Positions 39,540 to 49,333 of a DNA stretch of 64,000 nucleotides are shown here, piece after piece; the first letter of the stretch is position 1; every line of letters begins with the position of its first letter. Under the pieces are notes generated by a model. The model was not told the DNA's origin, ran no database searches, and worked only from the letters and a program-made list of their open reading frames with translations. The translations under genes were made by a program, and so were the position numbers. This stretch comes from an uncultured Acidimicrobiia bacterium (lineage in GTDB: Bacteria > Actinomycetota > Acidimicrobiia > Spongiisociales > ZC4RG35), in the NCBI GenBank assembly GCA_963761985.1, contig CAVXIT010000003.1:280342-344341 (forward strand), written 5' to 3'.

Positions 39540-39592
39540 TGAAACCGCGGGCAAAATACCGTGAAATCCACGGTGCAGAGCCTTAGGTTTCG
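39540..39592. repeat. Palindromic REP-like element, copy 2
   Basis: GAAACCGCGGGC ... GCCTTAGGTTTCG ends with an inner ACCGTG-AAATC-CACGGT hairpin. It shares CGAAACCTAAGGC and CCGTGGWTTTCACGG with copy 1. Confidence 0.7.
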
Positions 39593-40362
39593 CTCTTGCC
39601 GAGCCGTTCGACGTAGTGGGCGACGGCCTCCTGATGGGCGTCGGTGTGATGGCTGATCGCCTGCAAAGCCGCTGAATACTCGAGAAATCCGTCGAGGTCC
39701 ATGCTCCGGGCTTGCCGCAGCAGGCGTTTGGTGAGCCGGACCGAATGGCTGGGCTTCTGGGCAATCGAGGTAGCAAGCTCCTGGGCCCGGGCCACGACAT
39801 CGTCGGTCACCTCAAGCAGGATGCCAAGCCGGACCGCTTCCTCGGCGGCTACGGCCCGGCCAGTGAAGGAAAGCTCGGCGGCTCGTTGCCAGCCGAGCTG
39901 GCGGGCGAGGAGCCAGGCTCCGCCGTCTCCCGGAATGATGCCGAGATCAACGAATGAGTGGGAGAAGCGGGCGGCCGGCGAGCCCAGCCGCAGGTCGCAG
40001 CCGAGCACCAAATCGAACCCGGCGCCGACGGCCGGCCCGTTGACCGCAGCGATCGTGACCAGGTCAGTGTCAGCCAGGGTTCTGGTAAGCCGCTGGATGC
40101 TCGCCCGATAGCCCTCGAGGATCTCTTCGGGAGTTCCGGCAAAGAGCCCTTTCCTCGCGGCCATGTCCTTGATGTTGCCGCCTGCGGAGAATGCGGTGCC
40201 GGCGCCGGTTATCACGAGTGCCTGTGCCTCGGTGGCGGCCATTTCGATACTGCTGACGATGGCGTCGAGCATCTCGACCCCGGTCAACGCGTTGCGAGTC
40301 TCCGGCTCGTTGAGGACCAACAGCCCGACTCTGCTGTCGAGGGTGAGATCGGCTGCGCTCAC
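39583..40362 (-). CDS. Enoyl-CoA hydratase/isomerase
   Basis: NEPETRNAL, FSAGGN, VNGPAVGAG and LGIIPGDGGAW motifs. Confidence 0.9.
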   Translation of the reverse strand: MSAADLTLDSRVGLLVLNEPETRNALTGVEMLDAIVSSIEMAATEAQALVITGAGTAFSAGGNIKDMAARKGLFAGTPEEILEGYRASIQRLTRTLADTDLVTIAAVNGPAVGAGFDLVLGCDLRLGSPAARFSHSFVDLGIIPGDGGAWLLARQLGWQRAAELSFTGRAVAAEEAVRLGILLEVTDDVVARAQELATSIAQKPSHSVRLTKRLLRQARSMDLDGFLEYSAALQAISHHTDAHQEAVAHYVERLGKSET

Positions 40363-41141
40363 CAACCAACTCTCGCCGCGGCCTCGCGAAAGGCTCGGGC
40401 CGCGGAGGGGTCGACGGGATTGGCGGCGATGCCCTGGTGTTTCAAGGCCGAGCCGACAACGACGCCATTGGCGAACGTGGCGAGTTCGCGGAGATTTTCG
40501 ATCCTGGCCCCCGACCCGACGTAAATGGGTGCGTCCCCAACTGCTTTGCGCAGTCGGCGTCCATCGTCGGGGTCGGCGGGCAGACCGGTTCCGCTTCCCG
40601 ACACGATCAGTACATCGGCGCCGCCTCGCTCCCACGTGTCGAGCCCCGCCTGTTCGAGCCCCAGACCTGGGGGTGGGGTGGCGTGCTTCACCAGCACGTC
40701 GGCCATGATCTTGACGTCCGGGCACCACTCCTTGCGACGCCGGGCGAGCTCGTTCGCCTGACCAACAATCGGACCTTGGTCGGTGTACATCAGGCCGGAG
40801 AGGACATTGACCCGGATGAAAGAGGCGCCGGTTGCCGCGGCGATCGCCAAAGCTCCAATCCCGTCATTGCGAAGGACGTTGACTCCAACCTGGCCGCTCG
40901 TTGCATCGAGCACCGAGCTCATGACCCGGGTGAGCGCAGCAATGGTGATGGGAGGCACGGTCGAAGCATGAAAGGGGACGTCGCCGAAGTTCTCGATCAT
41001 CAGCGCTCCGAACCCTGCTTCCTCGAGCGCGGTGGCGTCCGCCAGGGCCTGTTCGACCAGCCGATCAAAATTGTTGTTGAAACGAGGGGAGCCGGGGAGC
41101 GGGCCGAGATGCACCATCCCTATCAGGGATGGCAGGGTCAT
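40359..41141 (-). CDS. BtpA/SgcQ family protein
   Basis: IGMVHLGPLPGSP, ENFGDVPF, GVNVLRND and ADVLVKHA motifs. Confidence 0.92.
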   Translation of the reverse strand: MTLPSLIGMVHLGPLPGSPRFNNNFDRLVEQALADATALEEAGFGALMIENFGDVPFHASTVPPITIAALTRVMSSVLDATSGQVGVNVLRNDGIGALAIAAATGASFIRVNVLSGLMYTDQGPIVGQANELARRRKEWCPDVKIMADVLVKHATPPPGLGLEQAGLDTWERGGADVLIVSGSGTGLPADPDDGRRLRKAVGDAPIYVGSGARIENLRELATFANGVVVGSALKHQGIAANPVDPSAARAFREAAARVGW

Positions 41142-41872
41142 AGGTAGGCGCGTACTACTTCGAGCGCGGTCTCGGCAACTTCACCGGTGGCCTTCAGGTT
41201 CTTGGCGTCCTTGCGCTTGATGCGATGAACCGCCAATCGAGCCCACTCGCCAGCCGGACCTTTGATCACCTGATCGGTATCGGCGGGACCGTAAACCCAT
41301 TTGGAATATCCAGGACCCATGACTTCGACCCGGACCGGCGAGTAATCCATGTCAGCGCTCTTGAACGCATAGGGCAGCGTCTTCCAACCGAGAAAACAAA
41401 TGTGCCTGATACGGGGAGTGTCTTCGGGCTGAAATTTCATCGCCGCATATATGTCAAGGCCGTGAGCCCAGTTCTCCATCATCCCCATGGTCGCAAAGGT
41501 CCGAGCCGACATCGATCCTGCAATCCACTCGATCCGCTCCTCGCCGTTCATCTGAGACAGAGGCTCGACCACTTTGGCCCGGCCGCCCCGCCACCATTCG
41601 ATCACGTCCTGGTAACGCATCTTGCGGCCCTTTTTCACTGCCGCCTGGCGGAGGGCATCGAGGTCGGGAGCGACCCGGTACGCCTCGATTCTGCTGCCCC
41701 CGTTCAGCGCATCCGCAGAGAGTTCGGCCGAGTCGGCCAGGTGGCTGATGGTGTCCCGGATCGACCAACCCTTGGCCGGAGTCGGCTTCTCCCAGTCCTT
41801 GGCCCCAATTTTCTGGAGGAACTGGTCGAGAAACTGCTGCTCAGCGACGAGGTCCGAGAGGAGGTCACGCAC
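41138..41872 (-). CDS. Mycothiol-dependent maleylpyruvate isomerase family protein (TIGR03084-like)
   Basis: PTPAKGWSIRDTISHLA, MENWAHGLD and LGWKTLPYAF motifs. Confidence 0.85.
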   Translation of the reverse strand: MRDLLSDLVAEQQFLDQFLQKIGAKDWEKPTPAKGWSIRDTISHLADSAELSADALNGGSRIEAYRVAPDLDALRQAAVKKGRKMRYQDVIEWWRGGRAKVVEPLSQMNGEERIEWIAGSMSARTFATMGMMENWAHGLDIYAAMKFQPEDTPRIRHICFLGWKTLPYAFKSADMDYSPVRVEVMGPGYSKWVYGPADTDQVIKGPAGEWARLAVHRIKRKDAKNLKATGEVAETALEVVRAYL

Positions 41873-41929: not shown

Positions 41930-43030
41930 CTACCAGGGCCGTTCGGCTTGTTCCTCCACAAAGGGGTCGGGGGGCTTGACGGTTGAGGGAGTGATCACGA
42001 GCGAATTGAGCCGATCGATCAGCTGGCGCAGCCGACCGTAGCTCCTGCGGTCGAAATTCAACGACAAGCGCTCGCATTCGAGGGCGTCCTTGTCTTTGGT
42101 CTCCGCCGGGGAGGGCTCGGTCCGGTTGATCGATCCTGAGGCGAGGAGATCTGCGAATTCCTCGTTCAACTCGGCCAGTGTCTTGTCATCAGGGCCGGTG
42201 TGGATGCGCAAGACCAGCCGGCCTCCGACATAACGCTGCGAGTGATAGTTGGAGTAGAAATTGAGAATGTGCTCGACCGCGTCGTCAGCGTCGCTGGTCA
42301 GCATGAAGAGGGACATGTCTTCGGGTGCGATCATCCCTTTTTCGATCAAGACGTTGGCGCAGAACTCGAGCAATGGCGGCCAGTAGCCGGTCCCTGGCGC
42401 TTCAAGCAGGACGATCGGATGAAGGTCGCTCTTTCCGGTTTGGACCAGGGTGAAGAGCTCGAAAGACTCATCGAGGGTTCCGAAGCCGCCGGGGCAAAGG
42501 ACAAATGCCGCCGACTCCTTGATAAAGGTCAGTTTGCGCGTGAAGAAGTACTTGAAGTTGACCATTCGCTTGGGATCGATTGCCCCGACTGGATCCGGTT
42601 CGAACGGCAAGCGAATGTTGACTCCGTACGCGTGGTCGAGACCGGCTCCGAGGGCACCGGCTTCCATGATCCCGGGCCCGGCCCCGGTGATCACCCCCCA
42701 ACCCTTGTCCGCCATCTTCGCGGCGAGCGATTCGGCCAAGACATAGTTGGGATCATCGGCGCGCAGGCGTGCGGAGCCGAAGATCGTGACCTTGGGTTCG
42801 TCGTGAGGGGCGAACAGCCGCATCGAGTAGCGCATCTCTTTAAGGGCGGTGTTGACCAATTTGAGGTCACCCCGTTCGGCGCGATCGCGATGAAGCTTCA
42901 GGATCGTCGTGACCATTTCGGCGATCAGATCGTGGTTCTCACCCGCGACGGCTGAGGGTGCCGCGTCGACGATCAACTGCCGAACCTGTTCGTTCAGTTC
43001 GGGTCGCCCCAGGTCGTATTGCTTGGTCGT
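41930..43030 (-). CDS. LOG family protein (TIGR00730-like nucleotide monophosphate nucleosidase); start uncertain (ACG 43030 or TTG 42976)
   Basis: VTIFGSAR, ITGAGPGIMEA, FKYFFTRK and PGGFGTLDE motifs. Confidence 0.88.
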   Translation of the reverse strand, partial: TTKQYDLGRPELNEQVRQLIVDAAPSAVAGENHDLIAEMVTTILKLHRDRAERGDLKLVNTALKEMRYSMRLFAPHDEPKVTIFGSARLRADDPNYVLAESLAAKMADKGWGVITGAGPGIMEAGALGAGLDHAYGVNIRLPFEPDPVGAIDPKRMVNFKYFFTRKLTFIKESAAFVLCPGGFGTLDESFELFTLVQTGKSDLHPIVLLEAPGTGYWPPLLEFCANVLIEKGMIAPEDMSLFMLTSDADDAVEHILNFYSNYHSQRYVGGRLVLRIHTGPDDKTLAELNEEFADLLASGSINRTEPSPAETKDKDALECERLSLNFDRRSYGRLRQLIDRLNSLVITPSTVKPPDPFVEEQAERPW

Positions 43031-43065: not shown

Positions 43066-44709
43066 GTGGTCAGCCAGGCACTGGAATCATTGGCGGAGAG
43101 CCTCGAAAGACGGGCCGCCAACGCTCCCTCCCCGCCCAAATCCGAAAAGGCCACGAGACTCGCTCGACACATCCGCGATTTCCTCTTGCCGCGTGCCGCC
43201 GACCTGAGCTCTCCATTGATCGTCGTCCTGCTCGGTTCGACGGGGGCTGGGAAGTCGAGCCTGTTCAATGCCATCGCCGGCCGACGGGTCAGCGAGTCGG
43301 GGCTGCTTCGACCAACGACCCGGCAGGCGGTTGCCCTGGTCAATCCGGCCGACGATGGGGGCCTCCGGCTCCCGGAGGTGCGTGTGGTGTCTGATCCGCT
43401 GACACCGCCAGGCCTGGTGTTGGTCGATTCACCCGACTTCGACTCGGTCGAGCTGGCCAATCGCAAGCTCGCCCTGGACTTGCTGGAAGCAGCCGATCTC
43501 ATCATCTTCGTCACGACCGTCACCCGCTATGCGGACTTTGTGCCGTGGACCGTGCTCGCCCGCGCCAACGAGCGCGGCGTTCCGATGCTCGCAGTGATCA
43601 ATCGGATGCCGGCAGAGGTCGAGGACGCGCGGGCCGTCATGGATGACTACCGGCGGTTGCTGGTCGGTGGCGACATCGAAAAGTTGGGTGCGTTTGGGAA
43701 TCTCGAGGTGGTCGCGGTCGAAGAAGGGGCTCTGGATCGAAATATCGACGGCCTGGCCCGCGCGGCGATCAGTCCGATCCTGGGGGCGATCGAAAGGCTG
43801 CAAAGCGACACCGAGGCACGCAAGGAAATCGCGCGCCGGGCGCTCAAGGCTGCCCTCGACAGCTTGCCGGAGAGTGTGGAACAGATTGCACACGAAGTTG
43901 CGGCCGAGGAGGAGGCGGCGGCGACGATGGTCAGGAAAGCGGAGGAAAATTACCGGCGCGGGCTCGCAGAGCTGGAAGGCGAGATTGCCAGTGGCACCCT
44001 TCTGCGAGGTGAAGTCTTGCGTCAGTGGCTGGACTTCGTCCGGGCCGGTCCCACCGCACGCTTTCTCTCGGAAGGTATTGGCCGCATCGCCACCAGTCTC
44101 CGCAACCTCTTCCGACCTCAGCCGGCGGTGCCGGCGCCCGACGTTCGTGAAGCGGCCTTCGCCGATCTGATTGCATCGGCGATCCGCCAGGCCGACGAGG
44201 CGGCACGCAGAACGGCGAACTCCTGGGCGGAGGACGAATACGGGTCCGCTGCTCTGGCCCGTCAGCCTGACCTGTGGGGAAGCCGATCGAATCTTGGAAC
44301 GGTCTTGCAGGAAAGCCTGAATCGGTGGGTCGATCGGATCGCCGACGAGATCGCCGTCGTTGGTCAACAACGCAAGGGCTGGGCCCAGGCCGCAACGATC
44401 GGTCTCAACGTTCTCGGAACCAGCGTGATGCTCGCCGTTTTCGTCCATACCGGTGGCCTGACCGGAGCCGAAATCGGGATCGGAGCAGGGACAGCGGTCG
44501 TAAATCAAAAGCTCTTGGAAGCGATCTTCGGCGAGGCCAATGTCGCCGCCTTCGTCAAGCAAGCCCGCGACCGGCTTCATGAAGAACTGCGGCGGGCTTT
44601 CGAAGGCGAGAAGGATCGCTTCGTGGCTGCGCTCGGTCGGGTTGGCAGCGGCGGGCTCGCGGCAACCCTCCGTGCGGAGGCAAAGGCTGCCAAAGCTGCG
44701 TTCTCGTGA
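43066..44709 (+). CDS. Dynamin-like GTPase A
   Basis: G1 GSTGAGKS, G2 RPTT, G3 DSPD and G4 NRM, followed by a long helical region and a hydrophobic hairpin (VMLAVFVHTGGLTGAEIG). Confidence 0.85.
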   Translation: MVSQALESLAESLERRAANAPSPPKSEKATRLARHIRDFLLPRAADLSSPLIVVLLGSTGAGKSSLFNAIAGRRVSESGLLRPTTRQAVALVNPADDGGLRLPEVRVVSDPLTPPGLVLVDSPDFDSVELANRKLALDLLEAADLIIFVTTVTRYADFVPWTVLARANERGVPMLAVINRMPAEVEDARAVMDDYRRLLVGGDIEKLGAFGNLEVVAVEEGALDRNIDGLARAAISPILGAIERLQSDTEARKEIARRALKAALDSLPESVEQIAHEVAAEEEAAATMVRKAEENYRRGLAELEGEIASGTLLRGEVLRQWLDFVRAGPTARFLSEGIGRIATSLRNLFRPQPAVPAPDVREAAFADLIASAIRQADEAARRTANSWAEDEYGSAALARQPDLWGSRSNLGTVLQESLNRWVDRIADEIAVVGQQRKGWAQAATIGLNVLGTSVMLAVFVHTGGLTGAEIGIGAGTAVVNQKLLEAIFGEANVAAFVKQARDRLHEELRRAFEGEKDRFVAALGRVGSGGLAATLRAEAKAAKAAFS

Positions 44710-46286
44710 AGGATTTCTTACAGCTCAGGCAAGCGGCCGACGCTGCTCTCGACCTCGGATTGGAAGACGATGCTCGCCGGGCCGAGCATGTCCTCAGTGA
44801 GGTCGAAGGCCGAATGGGTTTCGAGGGCACTGCCTATGTCCTTGCGCTCGCCGGAGGCACGGGGGTCGGCAAGTCATCGCTGCTCAACGCGCTGGCCGGC
44901 AGCCCCGTGAGTGAAGTAAGCCCGCTCCGTCCCACGACCTCGCGACCTCTCGCCTGGGTGGCGGCGAGCCAACGCGTGGAAGTAGCGCCTTTGCTCGAAT
45001 GGCTGGGGGTCGAAGCAGTGATCACGCACGATCGCGAGGAGCTTTCGGGCATGGTGATCCTCGATCTCCCGGATTTCGACAGTGTCGCAGTCGACCATCG
45101 CGCCACGGTTGATCGCCTGCTCCCGCGCATCGACTCGATGTTGTGGGTGGTCGATACCGAGAAATACGACGACGAGCTGCTCCACGCTTATCTCCGGGAT
45201 CTGACTCCGCACGCCGAGCGAATTGGCTTTGTCTTCAACAAGTCGGACCGCCTCGACACCGACGGTCAAAAGCTCGTTGGGGAAGACTTTCGCCGTCGAC
45301 TCCGCTCGGCCGGATATCCCCGGCCCGACCTGTTCATCGTGTCGGCGAAGACGGGCGATGGTGTAGAGCCGCTGGTCAATGCATTGCGCCGACGGGCCGA
45401 CGACAAGGAGCTCGTCGTGAAGAAACTGGAAGCGGACCTCGGTTCAAGCCTGGTCGAGCTGGCTGCGGCGGCGGGCGTCGACAAGAGCTATGCCCCACTG
45501 GTCGATGACCGCGAACGAGAATCGGCGACAGCGGACGCGGTGCGAGGAGCGCTGGCAATAGTCGACCCCGAAGGCGTGGCGGCTCAAGTGAGGGCGGCTG
45601 TGCTCTACCGGGCCCGCCGCCAGGGCGGCTCGTTACTCGCTCGAGTCCTGGCGTTGTTAAGCAATTTGACTGGCACCCGCCGCAAGTCGGCCGATCCAGC
45701 GGGATTTTTGTTGGCGTGGAATCAACGCGGATCGCTGGGCCACGTTCTCAATCCCGTCCGCCGCCTTTTGGTCGACTCGGTTTCGAGGCTGCCCGGGCGA
45801 GCCCGACCGGGAGTCATGAGAAAACTTGACCTCCCCGACCTCGAAGCTCGGCTAACTAAATCGATCGACGGGGCCGTTCGATCGGCCCGGAACGACCTCG
45901 AAGTGGCCCGCTCGATGCTCTGGGTTCTCGTGGGAGTGCTGCAACTGATCCTCGGTGCCGCGTTCCTTTTTGCTGTCGCCTGGTACCTCACCTTGATCTT
46001 CGGCCCGGGGAGCTTGCCGGTGGGCACGGTCGAGATTCCTTACCTGGGCCCTGTTCCGATCCCTCTCGCTCTCATCGTCGGTTCCCTGGTCGCCAGCCTG
46101 CTGCTCGGGCTATTGCTCAATCTTCATGCCAGCTGGATCGGCCGGCGGCGGGGTGCCAGGGTCGCTTCGGCGGTTCGAACTGCGATCGAGTCGACGATCG
46201 GGGAAACGGCCTTCCGACCGCTCGATCAGATCGAAGCGGCGCGCCGCCGGATCTCCGAAGCTAGTTCTGGAACGGGGCTCCGGTAG
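44706..46286 (+). CDS. Dynamin-like GTPase B with two C-terminal TM helices
   Basis: GGTGVGKS, RPTT, DLPD and NKSD motifs. GTGA overlap with GTPase A. Confidence 0.85.
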   Translation: MKDFLQLRQAADAALDLGLEDDARRAEHVLSEVEGRMGFEGTAYVLALAGGTGVGKSSLLNALAGSPVSEVSPLRPTTSRPLAWVAASQRVEVAPLLEWLGVEAVITHDREELSGMVILDLPDFDSVAVDHRATVDRLLPRIDSMLWVVDTEKYDDELLHAYLRDLTPHAERIGFVFNKSDRLDTDGQKLVGEDFRRRLRSAGYPRPDLFIVSAKTGDGVEPLVNALRRRADDKELVVKKLEADLGSSLVELAAAAGVDKSYAPLVDDRERESATADAVRGALAIVDPEGVAAQVRAAVLYRARRQGGSLLARVLALLSNLTGTRRKSADPAGFLLAWNQRGSLGHVLNPVRRLLVDSVSRLPGRARPGVMRKLDLPDLEARLTKSIDGAVRSARNDLEVARSMLWVLVGVLQLILGAAFLFAVAWYLTLIFGPGSLPVGTVEIPYLGPVPIPLALIVGSLVASLLLGLLLNLHASWIGRRRGARVASAVRTAIESTIGETAFRPLDQIEAARRRISEASSGTGLR

Positions 46287-47256
46287 GGCCGCGGCGGACG
46301 ACGGCGTTCCAAACCGTCTCGTAGTGGTCGCGGTCGAAGGCGTCGACATGGGGCAGCACGAACGCTTCCCAGGCACGCCGCAGCGGATCGGTCTCGTCCC
46401 GGTAGACGCGCAAGCCAGTGGGGATCCGATCAAGGACGGAGCGGAGAGAAAGCGGCGACTCGACTCGTGTGGAGGCGTCGGGCACAACGAAGGAGGCGTT
46501 GACTTCCACTGCGAGCCGTGAGATAGCTTCGACCAAGTCCTCGCGCAGAGACGGGTAGCGGCGTTTCAACATTGCCTGGACCTGCTCGCCGCCGGGGAAG
46601 TCCTTTTCCCAAATCACCCAGCGGTCGGCAAAGGCCTTGTTTAACGTTTGCGTCCCGGCGTAATCGCGGATGTCGGTCGGGTTCATCGTTCCGAAGACGC
46701 GAACGTCCGGACGTAAACGCACCGTTTCCCCGTTGGGGAGATCGAGAGCCCCGTAGCGGTCGAGAAGCCCATGCAAGGCAAAGAGAGTCTCTGCTCCTGC
46801 CGCGTTCAACTCGGAGAGATTGAGCAGCGCCGGTCCGCGCAGTGCCCGGGTGATGTCGCCATCCTCCCAACGGCTCTCCGTTCCCCCCTTGCCATCCCCA
46901 TGAAGTCTGGTCGAACCGATCAAGGTGACATCGCGGACCTCACCGGTCAGCGGAATCCGGTAGTAGGGGAGTCCGAGCTGGGCGGCGAACTGCTCGATGT
47001 CATGGTCTTTGCCGGTCCCCATGTGACCGCGCACGGCCAAGTGGAGCGGAGCAAAACCCTCGGGATCCGAGCGGCGCACTGCTTCTACCTGGGCAAAGCG
47101 GTAGAGCATGCCGAGGTCCACGTAGTGCGGGTCGGGCACCGGGATCTTGCCGTTTCTCTGTTTGGAGTCGGCCACCTTTTGGTCGACGGCGAACTTATCC
47201 AAGGTGATGGAAGGTCCCGACCCCGTGGGATCCTCGAAGGTCACTTTCTCAGGCAC
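46261..47256 (-). CDS. MoxR-type (CbbQ/NorQ/CobS-like) AAA+ ATPase with atypical Walker motifs
   Basis: GHMGTGKD, WEDGDITRA, LLNLSELN, FGTMNP, YAGTQTLNKAFADRW and SLR motifs. Confidence 0.88.
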   Translation of the reverse strand: MPEKVTFEDPTGSGPSITLDKFAVDQKVADSKQRNGKIPVPDPHYVDLGMLYRFAQVEAVRRSDPEGFAPLHLAVRGHMGTGKDHDIEQFAAQLGLPYYRIPLTGEVRDVTLIGSTRLHGDGKGGTESRWEDGDITRALRGPALLNLSELNAAGAETLFALHGLLDRYGALDLPNGETVRLRPDVRVFGTMNPTDIRDYAGTQTLNKAFADRWVIWEKDFPGGEQVQAMLKRRYPSLREDLVEAISRLAVEVNASFVVPDASTRVESPLSLRSVLDRIPTGLRVYRDETDPLRRAWEAFVLPHVDAFDRDHYETVWNAVVRRGPTGAPFQN

Positions 47257-49333
47257 TGATTAACTCCCTAGGTGTTGCAGATTTCTGTGGACGGAGCCAC
47301 CAGGTGTCCATGCCCCACAGCGAAAGACCGCGCCGCAAGGCGCCACGGGTGCCGTCGATCATGGCTCTGGTCAACGCCTCGGGCCGGTTGACGGTTTCGA
47401 AGCGGTGATAGGCCCCGGTGGCGGTGTCGTCGCCGATTCCAATTCCAAGCACCGTGGTGCCGGAGCGTTCGACTGCGGTGACTGCCGAGCTGAGCGCCTC
47501 GACCGAGCCGCGAGTCATGCCGTCGGCGAGGACGACGAGCACCCGGACCTGGGCGCCGAGCTTGGCCATGCGCTCGGCGGCATGAATGACGTTGAACTCG
47601 TCGACGTTGGCCGCTCGCTCGAACAGTGACACAGGCGGGCAGGTTCGTGGATCGCGCCGCGCGGCCAGAGCTGCTTTGGCCGGCTCCGACGCGGTCCAGA
47701 ACATTCCGGCGAGGACCGGCTCGGCTTCGCGCCATCGCCGGTCAAACGACTTGACCAGGTAATGATTGACGGTCGTTGTAAGTCGTGCCGACGCCGAGCC
47801 GTGGGTCTGGCGGAGACCTGCCGCGGCCTGACTGGCCGAGCGGGTGTAGGTCCATTCGGTGTCGTTGGGCCGGGTGGCAAAGCCACGGTTGAAGAGCGCC
47901 ACTTCGAAATCGACCTGGAGCTCATGACAGAGGCGGGCGAGAGTCGTGGCGCCGAGCAGGGCCGCGGCCATGCCCCACGGCCGGCGATCGGGATTGCGAG
48001 GCTGCAGCATCGACGCGGAGGCATCGACGAGAAGGCTCACCGCGTACGAACGTCGGGTCCGTGAGGCGCGTCGTTCATACATGCGGTCATAGAGACCGGC
48101 ACCGATGAAGAGGGCGGCATGAGGGGAAACGTCGCCCTGGTCGTAGCCGGACCGCAATCCCCGCCGCTGGTTCGCAGCGAAGAGAGGGTAGAGCTCACCC
48201 GAAACCTGGCGTTGGGCGACACCCCACTTTCGGGCCGCCGCGTCCATCGCCGCCAGGCCATCGGCGGCAAATCGTGCGAACGTTGTCGGCGCGGCAGTGA
48301 CCACGAGCTTTCCGCCCATGCCAGTAGGCAAGTAGACGGTGGGAGCCTCGCTGACTCTCAGCAGTTGGTCCGTCGAGGCCTCGCCGGCCAGCTCGGAGGC
48401 GCCCTTCTTGTCTGAGTCACCGGCGCGAGCCTCGGCCACGCGCTGGACGTCGTGGTAACTGTCGGTGTTCCTCAACACGGGACTCGGCAGGCGGACCAGG
48501 TCAGCCCCGTCGGCCGCGGCCTCAGCATCCACCTTCTGCACCATTCGTTTTTGGGCCTGGGTGCCTTCCTCCCTAACCGAGGTCAAGAGACCGTGTGCCC
48601 GGGCAATCTCATGGAGGGCTAGAGCATGCTTGGCGACCTCGCGAGGATCCGTTTCGTTGCCCGCCTTGACACAAATCGGATAGGCGTCGGCCAGCGCTTG
48701 CTGCGCGCGGGAATTGAGGCGGCGCTCAAGCGCTTCGCGTTCGATGTAGCTACCGCAGTAGAGAAAGCAACCGAGGGTGAACTGACCGAGCGGGCCCGAC
48801 TTCGAGATCGCGAACGAGAGCGCAGATAAGTAGAGGTCGATGAGAACCGACCGCACCCCGGGATAGTTGACCAGGCCCTGCACCTCCTGGCGCGCGTCTT
48901 CGAGATTGAAGAACAGGATCTCGGCGACCGGTCCACCCTCGCGGGCAAGAAAGTCGAGGAGGTCCTCCTCACCGTTTAGCGCTCCATTCGTCTCATCGGG
49001 GCCGAACGGCTCATCAAAGTTCGTGGAGAGAAGGTGGACCACCTCGTGCATGGCGGAGGCGAGCGCCATCTCCGGGGCCGTGACGGGAGCTTCGCGGTTG
49101 GTGGCAGCCTGGAAGAGTCGAGGATCGCAGACCACCTCATCGTTTGTGACCGCTGCTGCGGGCCCCAAGACAACGCGGAGCTTGGGATTGTCGGCCAGCG
49201 AACGAGCGAAGCGAGTGACGGCCGGGGCAACGGCCTGGTAGCGCGATACCACCGCTTCGATGGCTTGCTCCTCGGGCGGGAGCATCTCGCGGAGGAATGA
49301 CGATCTCACCCCGGGCTGCTGACGGACGCGCAT
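47249..49333 (-). CDS. vWA-domain protein with N-terminal HExxH metallopeptidase-like domain (CobT/NorD-like)
   Basis: HEVVH...NLEDARQE...YPG, then the MIDAS motif LLVDASASM, VLADG and GIGIG. Confidence 0.85.
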   Translation of the reverse strand: MRVRQQPGVRSSFLREMLPPEEQAIEAVVSRYQAVAPAVTRFARSLADNPKLRVVLGPAAAVTNDEVVCDPRLFQAATNREAPVTAPEMALASAMHEVVHLLSTNFDEPFGPDETNGALNGEEDLLDFLAREGGPVAEILFFNLEDARQEVQGLVNYPGVRSVLIDLYLSALSFAISKSGPLGQFTLGCFLYCGSYIEREALERRLNSRAQQALADAYPICVKAGNETDPREVAKHALALHEIARAHGLLTSVREEGTQAQKRMVQKVDAEAAADGADLVRLPSPVLRNTDSYHDVQRVAEARAGDSDKKGASELAGEASTDQLLRVSEAPTVYLPTGMGGKLVVTAAPTTFARFAADGLAAMDAAARKWGVAQRQVSGELYPLFAANQRRGLRSGYDQGDVSPHAALFIGAGLYDRMYERRASRTRRSYAVSLLVDASASMLQPRNPDRRPWGMAAALLGATTLARLCHELQVDFEVALFNRGFATRPNDTEWTYTRSASQAAAGLRQTHGSASARLTTTVNHYLVKSFDRRWREAEPVLAGMFWTASEPAKAALAARRDPRTCPPVSLFERAANVDEFNVIHAAERMAKLGAQVRVLVVLADGMTRGSVEALSSAVTAVERSGTTVLGIGIGDDTATGAYHRFETVNRPEALTRAMIDGTRGALRRGLSLWGMDTWWLRPQKSATPRELISA

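Follow-up and report, generated by a model that had tools for sequence, protein, structure and literature searches.

The window analyzed here, a 64,000-nucleotide stretch of DNA, encodes a MoxR/CobS/CbbQ-like AAA+ ATPase and, directly upstream on the same strand, a CobT-like protein with a VWA domain. The features of the locus, with their positions in the window, are the following.

46261..47256, minus strand: MoxR/CobS/CbbQ-like AAA+ protein of 331 aa with a GTG start (Pfam AAA_5, TIGR01650, AlphaFold, Foldseek, VIA)
47005..47028, minus strand: Walker A, G77-D84, reading GHMGTGKD, with Asp at the position after the lysine (K+1), where Ser/Thr is canonical (sequence)
46810..46827, minus strand: Walker B strand, L144-E149, reading LLNLSE, with Ser148 in the place of the Asp, Glu149 kept and a family-specific Asn146
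46861..46917, minus strand: predicted helix-2 insert (H2i) beta-hairpin, residues 114-132 (model strands 114-120 and 126-132)
46717..46749, minus strand: predicted pre-sensor-1 insert (PS1i) hairpin, residues 170-180 (model strands 170-172 and 178-180)
46681..46683, minus strand: sensor-1 Asn192 (TMNP), from the family alignment, matching CobS N186 in position
46621..46623, minus strand: arginine finger Arg212 (ADRW), from the family alignment, matching CobS R210 in position
46441..46443, minus strand: sensor-2 Arg272, from the family alignment, the probable equivalent of CobS R271 by position
47249..49333, minus strand: CobT-like partner, an ORF of 694 aa with an N-terminal HExxH (zincin/M48-like) domain and a C-terminal VWA domain (profiles, models)
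49034..49048, minus strand: HExxH motif of the partner, H96-E97-x-x-H100, kept in orthologues
48011..48025, minus strand: MIDAS DxSxS of the partner, D437-S439-S441, completed by N576 (47608-47606) and D604 (47524-47522)
47249..47256, minus strand: 8-nt overlap of the VWA stop and the ATPase start (sequence)
43066-44709 and 44706-46286, plus strand: tandem dynamin-like GTPases (Pfam Dynamin_N, MMR_HSR1), between the ATPase and the LOG-family gene
41930-42976, minus strand: LOG-family gene of the downstream block
41138-41872, minus strand: MDMPI/DinB-like gene of the downstream block
40359-41141, minus strand: BtpA gene of the downstream block
39583-40728, minus strand: enoyl-CoA hydratase gene of the downstream block

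The first-pass annotation had read the Walker motifs as GHMGTGK-D and LLNL-S-E and had found the remaining catalytic residues intact. This reading is correct, as are its codon positions (D84, GAC at 47007-47005; S148, TCC at 46815-46813): K83, E149, N192 and R212 are all present, and so is R272. When aligned pairwise with a Sphingomonas protein annotated as CobS (31% identity over 261 columns), the ATPase gave the register GYHGTGKS/GHMGTGKD and ALVFDE/ALLNLSE, which pairs D84 with the Ser of Walker A and S148-E149 with the Asp-Glu of Walker B. The nucleotide pocket given for CobS in the available text of bioRxiv 10.64898/2026.07.21.739949, i.e., G71-S78, D141-E142, N186, R210, and R271, matches by position G77-D84, S148-E149, N192, R212, and R272. 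The Pfam AAA_5 profile matched the ATPase above its cut-off (E = 3.5e-12). No Rfam match and no sigma-70-like promoter were found at the locus.

Both replacements are fixed in the homologues. The motifs GHMGTGKDHD and xxNLSELNA were present in 120/120 of them (the best 120 of ~1,600, 78-99% identity, two being essentially the window's own protein), and a second search from a distant family member again returned both swapped residues in 120/120 (best 120 of ~1,600). All five motifs, comprising both changes together with the catalytic Glu, sensor-1, the Arg finger and sensor-2, were found in the 241 family proteins checked (241/241, query included). In the family alignment, D84, N146, S148 and E149 are each invariant (130/130 rows, query included), and so are N192, R212 and R272 (129/129 each); the sensor-1 Asn is also kept in 83/83 outgroup rows. 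The codons of the swapped residues vary freely at synonymous sites: over 87 loci, D84 is encoded by GAC (66) or GAT (21), and S148 by TCC (53), TCG (24), TCT (6) or TCA (4). A single base-call error is thus excluded, as had been claimed from the distance of two changes that separates the D84 codon from the nearest Ser/Thr codon and the S148 codon from the nearest Asp codon, and chance and sequencing error in general are ruled out by the two sets of homologues and their codon variation. Pairwise dN/dS against the window gene had a median of 0.085 (range 0.024-0.185; 84 of 86 pairs, two being saturated), values that are rough because synonymous sites are near saturation. Together with the invariance of the motifs, this rules out gene decay. 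The ATPase family is real, ancient and strongly selected.

The AlphaFold model of the ATPase (pLDDT 88, pTM 0.88) includes both insert hairpins, of which H2i has been described for CobS (bioRxiv 10.64898/2026.07.21.739949). In the PDB library searched, the top Foldseek and VIA matches were NorQ and CbbQ (TM 0.66/0.83; Z 21-23, best 23.4; rmsd 2.4 over 263 residues). On this model, the ATPase is a single AAA+ module of the AAA_5 type with a CbbQ/NorQ-like fold. NorQ-NorD and CbbQ-CbbO (PMC9976466; PDB 9qh6, 6l1q), the closest folds in that library, share 21-26% identity with it, but the CbbQ/NorQ-like loci inspected carry canonical GKT/DE, and no nor or Rubisco genes were found among the conserved neighbours of the pair. 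With respect to the MoxR-type AAA+ proteins of the CbbQ/NorQ/CobS group, the window ATPase has the fold, the predicted hairpins, the VWA-MIDAS neighbour and the catalytic set, but lacks the canonical GK[ST] and hhhhDE.

The partner gene is an equally constant feature. In 80/80 loci (80 of 449 genome matches), the gene directly upstream of the ATPase encodes a CobT-like HExxH-VWA protein, and the distance from the VWA stop to Walker A is 214-261 nt in all 98 loci measured and identical in 63 of them. The 8-nt overlap of the two genes likely reflects translational coupling. The HExxH motif is kept in 68/68 and 20/20 partner orthologues. The residue D146, which is His in small genomes, is likely the third metal ligand. 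The MIDAS residues D437-S439-S441-N576-D604 are invariant in a 64-row alignment; those given for CobT are D422, S424, S426, N518 and D546 (bioRxiv 10.64898/2026.07.21.739949). A profile search with the partner retrieved CobT (9uka, E = 9.3e-6). In its model (pLDDT 76, pTM 0.54), the VWA domain matches NorD, and the protein as a whole matches phage CobT-like proteins from end to end (E = 9.6e-14), with a low TM-score (0.4).

Among the closest known systems is the CobS-CobT pair, the motor and adaptor of the CobNST aerobic cobaltochelatase (PDB 9ujv/9uka). In addition to the 31% identity mentioned above, the ATPase shares with CobS the motifs GxHxGTGK and IEQxAAxL and the spacing of sensor-1, Arg finger and sensor-2, and CobT, like the partner, combines an M48-like N-domain with a VWA domain having Asn at the fourth MIDAS position (bioRxiv 10.64898/2026.07.21.739949, 10.64898/2026.10.09.757910). 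However, CobS has GKS and FDE where the window ATPase has GKD and LSE, and the partner keeps HExxH, unlike CobT. We rejected an identity as cobaltochelatase, since the CobS equivalog profile TIGR01650 scored 60.7 bits, far under its cut-off of 558.55, and CobN (PF02514) was found in 0/10 genomes of 87-100% completeness, with the control positive in 5/14. Modules of two genes have also been described in viruses: cobST pairs occur in many tailed viruses (PMC8651126), and jumbo phages encode a MoxR ATPase with a metallopeptidase-vWA partner (PMC7824862). As far as the available text of these two papers goes, such phage and archaeal-virus modules lack CobN, like the window pair, and phage CobT-like proteins are the best full-length structural matches of the partner. 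We found 428 phage records matching the ATPase at <60% identity, with all 30 of the matches listed at 27-31%. The viral ATPases inspected read GKT, whereas the window pair is chromosomal and has GKD. No close viral copy was found in viral contigs with a single-sequence query, which finds close relatives only. The architecture of a MoxR ATPase with a metallopeptidase-vWA protein is therefore already known, and by analogy the pair would work like the phage pairs and CobST. The family with the Asp/Ser Walker swap is apparently undescribed: neither the swap nor the family turned up in the literature searched, which lay chiefly outside the subscription journals and the bioRxiv supplements.

The pair sits in a conserved chromosomal block beside dapB/dapA/ftsK. 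The LOG-family gene is found in 77/80 close loci (80 of 449 genome matches) and 7/8 loci of other families, but in 0/12 loci of small genomes; we thus rejected it as an obligate partner, and it is probably a neighbour. The MDMPI-like and BtpA genes adjoin the pair in 11/12 small-genome loci, where dapB and dapA are also kept. Since dapB and dapA stay too, the conserved block names no client of the ATPase. The second dynamin-like ORF is convergent with the ATPase gene and overlaps its 3' end by 26 nt; the dynamin-like pair was rejected as part of the system, being present in just 9/80 loci (80 of 449 genome matches). In two small-genome loci (L123:6746-7195, L120:8198-8653), the place usually taken by LOG, next to the 3' end of the ATPase, holds a gene for an F420H2-dependent quinone reductase encoded on the opposite strand. 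In the ~1-Mb genomes L119 and L120, the ORFs beyond btpA include presumed umuC/umuD-type genes.

Among 401 sampled genomes of the class, the ATPase orthologue was present in 110/110 genomes of the order of the window, G000 included (109/109 without the unpublished G624), and in 58/65 genomes of a family whose assemblies measure 0.6-1.1 Mb. It was absent from the 226 other genomes, where the lone match was a 31%-identical protein with canonical FDE. The VWA partner followed the same pattern (37/37 in the order, 34/35 in the ~1-Mb family, 0/79 in the others). Five weak genome hits were inspected: one was a canonical FDE protein, and four were incomplete genes of the family, lying at the end of a contig or close to it and carrying D or S wherever these sites were covered (one spans neither). 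The labels of the 80 nearest loci were mostly Acidimicrobiia, with 8 Acidobacteriota and 1 Thermoleophilaceae, and these nine share the gene order. The small-genome loci fetched had 29-34% GC, and their family is likely "Ca. Actinomarina"; "Ca. Actinomarinales" have ~1.1 Mb and 32.5% GC, and the sister order UBA5794 has a median of 2.79 Mb and 59-72% GC (PMC12008989, PMC7771536). Identity between the window and the 12 small-genome loci was 57% for the ATPase, 57% for FtsK, 43% for DapA, 30% for DapB, and 29% for the VWA protein. The ATPase/VWA pair is a core gene pair throughout the order in the sampled genomes, and its function is apparently a core one. Contigs from four marine RNA runs (three studies) cover a small-genome orthologue, but neighbouring genes on both strands are covered alike and the template may be DNA, so we do not count them as evidence of expression.

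How the two changes arose was examined with outgroups. D and S occur together in 130/130 in-family rows, and neither change occurs in 83 outgroup rows, where K+1 is Thr (74), Ser (8) or a gap (1) and the Walker B Asp position is Asp (67) or Glu (16). The swap is not the sole peculiarity of the family, which has ~17 specific invariant positions among those scanned. Fixed residues that the outgroups lack include N146, M79, H85, D86, and R108-D109; N146, a third change in the same Walker B strand as S148, is replaced in the outgroups by non-polar residues or Tyr. E88-Q89 and a polar K+3 are common to the family and CobS. Midasin-like proteins (124 long ones, among the best 150 of 3,873 matches in a 50%-cluster search) provided 1,014 AAA segments. 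None had Asp at K+1 (0/1014). Ser stood at Walker B in three segments, each of which lacked the Glu after it, and Thr in three, one of them followed by Glu (GKT with NMTE) in a doubtful alignment. No intermediates (GKD with DE, or GKT with SE) were present in the rows examined (the best 120 of ~1,600 per homologue search, 150 of 3,873, and 80 of 449). Two other MoxR-like groups (L088:1288-2397, L089:1249-2490, P0275-P0281; L091, L092, L108) carry Glu in place of the Walker B Asp and read GKT with LLEE and GKS with Y[ILV]EE, so that the wider family is variable at this site.

In a tree of 56 selected rows, the 14 family rows share a single stem that is 1.95 substitutions per site long (SH-aLRT 100). 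The tree is a quick search with open deep forks, and one of these joins the ATPase family to the CobS proteins of phages and cells. Since both changes map to a single stem branch and no intermediates were seen, their co-occurrence counts as one event. This bears on the first-pass annotation, which had described a distinct subfamily with a compensatory swap rather than decay and had suggested collecting homologues to see whether GKD and SE co-vary. The subfamily and the absence of decay hold (130/130 versus 0/83, dN/dS 0.085), and no homologue spoke against the former, as neither canonical close homologues nor separate changes were found. The co-occurrence is perfect, but it does not amount to independent events, and the compensation claim loses that support. 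We infer that D84 and S148 may nevertheless compensate each other.

In every class of P-loop NTPases apart from some kinases, the K+1 hydroxyl is described as the fourth Mg2+ ligand and as hydrogen-bonded to the Walker B Asp (PMC9599734, section 3.2.1), which makes the two swapped positions contact partners. They are asymmetric, one being inner-sphere and the other outer-sphere, so that a swap is not automatically neutral. From the sequence, we consider it probable that the protein is an active MoxR/CobS-like ring ATPase motor in which Asp84 binds Mg2+ directly, Ser148 takes the outer-sphere, hydrogen-bonding place and Glu149 is the base. The ATP site would keep one carboxylate and one hydroxyl: Asp84 would be the inner-sphere ligand, and Ser148 would remove the clash of two carboxylates while retaining the hydrogen bond. 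Lys83, Glu149, Asn192, Arg212, and Arg272 would retain their canonical roles. By analogy to the systems CobST and NorQD, for which the motor-adaptor mechanism of VWA and MoxR proteins is known (PMC9976466; bioRxiv 10.64898/2026.10.09.757910), the ATPase ring would grip the upstream CobT-like partner by its VWA domain. The MIDAS of the partner would capture a client to be remodelled, and the HExxH domain may cut that client. The client would be a housekeeping protein; CobN, found in 0/10 genomes, is rejected for this role, and the neighbouring LOG is an improbable candidate. The main support for an active motor is the invariance of the hydrolysis and ring-coupling residues: E149, N192, R212, and R272 serve hydrolysis only and would not be expected to stay invariant in a dead protein.

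A less likely possibility, though one to be taken seriously, is that nucleotide is bound but hydrolysed very slowly or only when triggered, as in an ATP/ADP switch like torsin or DnaC, or that another metal or nucleotide is preferred. The known AAA+ proteins without Ser/Thr at K+1, torsinA and DnaC, have Asn there and very low ATPase activity (PMC9599734, Fig. S7 legend), and the alkoxide model predicts that fast catalysis is lost without this residue (PMC9599734, section 4.2.8). The extra acidic and His residues fixed beside the site (D84, H85, D86) point the same way. However, torsinA has also lost the catalytic acidic residue (PMC9599734), unlike the window ATPase, which keeps the whole motor set (E149, N192, R212, R272 and, in the model, the H2i and PS1i hairpins) as well as a VWA adaptor. 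T4 dNMP kinase, an annotated P-loop enzyme that has GKD with an apparently retained Walker B Asp (YIVPD), suggests that a kinase can transfer phosphoryl groups with Asp at K+1 and that this Asp does not always need a Ser partner. At K+1, the exceptions given in the available text of PMC9599734 are Gly and Asn; at Walker B, they are Glu, Asn and Thr. In none of them is the exchange reciprocal. In torsinA and DnaC (Asn), NMP kinases (Gly), MglA (Thr at Walker B), and T4 dNMP kinase (Asp at K+1), one position is altered; none has the reciprocal Asp/Ser and none is a MoxR-type AAA+ protein.

The ATPase could also be active without D84 and S148 compensating each other, the two being part of a wider rebuilding of the interface between helix 1 and Walker B on a long branch, with N146 or D86 as the real partners. 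The site may indeed be rebuilt more widely, since N146, H85, D86, and R108-D109 are family-specific too; the numerous specific positions, the length of the stem and the variation of the nearest relatives at Walker B (Glu in 16/83) are what such a history would leave. We regard it as improbable, because the exchange is exactly reciprocal at two positions in direct contact (PMC9599734) and neither change occurs alone in 82-83 outgroup rows, nor Asp at K+1 in any midasin-like segment. Finally, a catalytically dead scaffold or a decaying gene is very improbable: two near-universal residues are replaced and degenerate AAA domains exist in midasin, but dN/dS is ~0.09, every sampled genome of the order has the gene, ~1-Mb genomes retain it, and the family keeps the Glu that all three midasin-like segments with Ser at Walker B have lost.

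If the protein is the active motor that we favour, a more speculative extension, which we hold to be rather doubtful, is that a domesticated phage-type CobS/CobT pair forms an essential ATP-dependent protease or maturase, in which a fast motor, its Mg2+ site inverted, hands the client captured by the MIDAS on to the zinc-protease domain, and which is indispensable even in the smallest free-living actinobacteria. Few residue pairs of enzymes are as conserved as the Walker A Ser/Thr and the Walker B Asp, and their role is argued, as a Mg2+ ligand only or as an alkoxide proton relay (PMC9599734). A strongly selected AAA+ protein with this pair inverted and the other catalytic residues intact is a natural test of the roles of both, and a four-way mutant cycle on it would separate the Mg2+-ligand and alkoxide models. 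Fast hydrolysis without a K+1 hydroxyl, if true, would rule out the Ser/Thr-alkoxide mechanism proposed as universal for P-loop NTPases. Beyond the mechanism, the two genes point to an apparently core function in two groups of uncultured actinobacteria, of which one has marine genomes of ~1 Mb.

The partner shows some variation of its own. In six genomes (G423, G160, G512, G480, G133, and G492) it matches in two pieces, split near residues 110-124, just after the HExxH motif, which suggests a long variable insertion at this place; in L131, L133, and L135 the partner aligns as one ORF.
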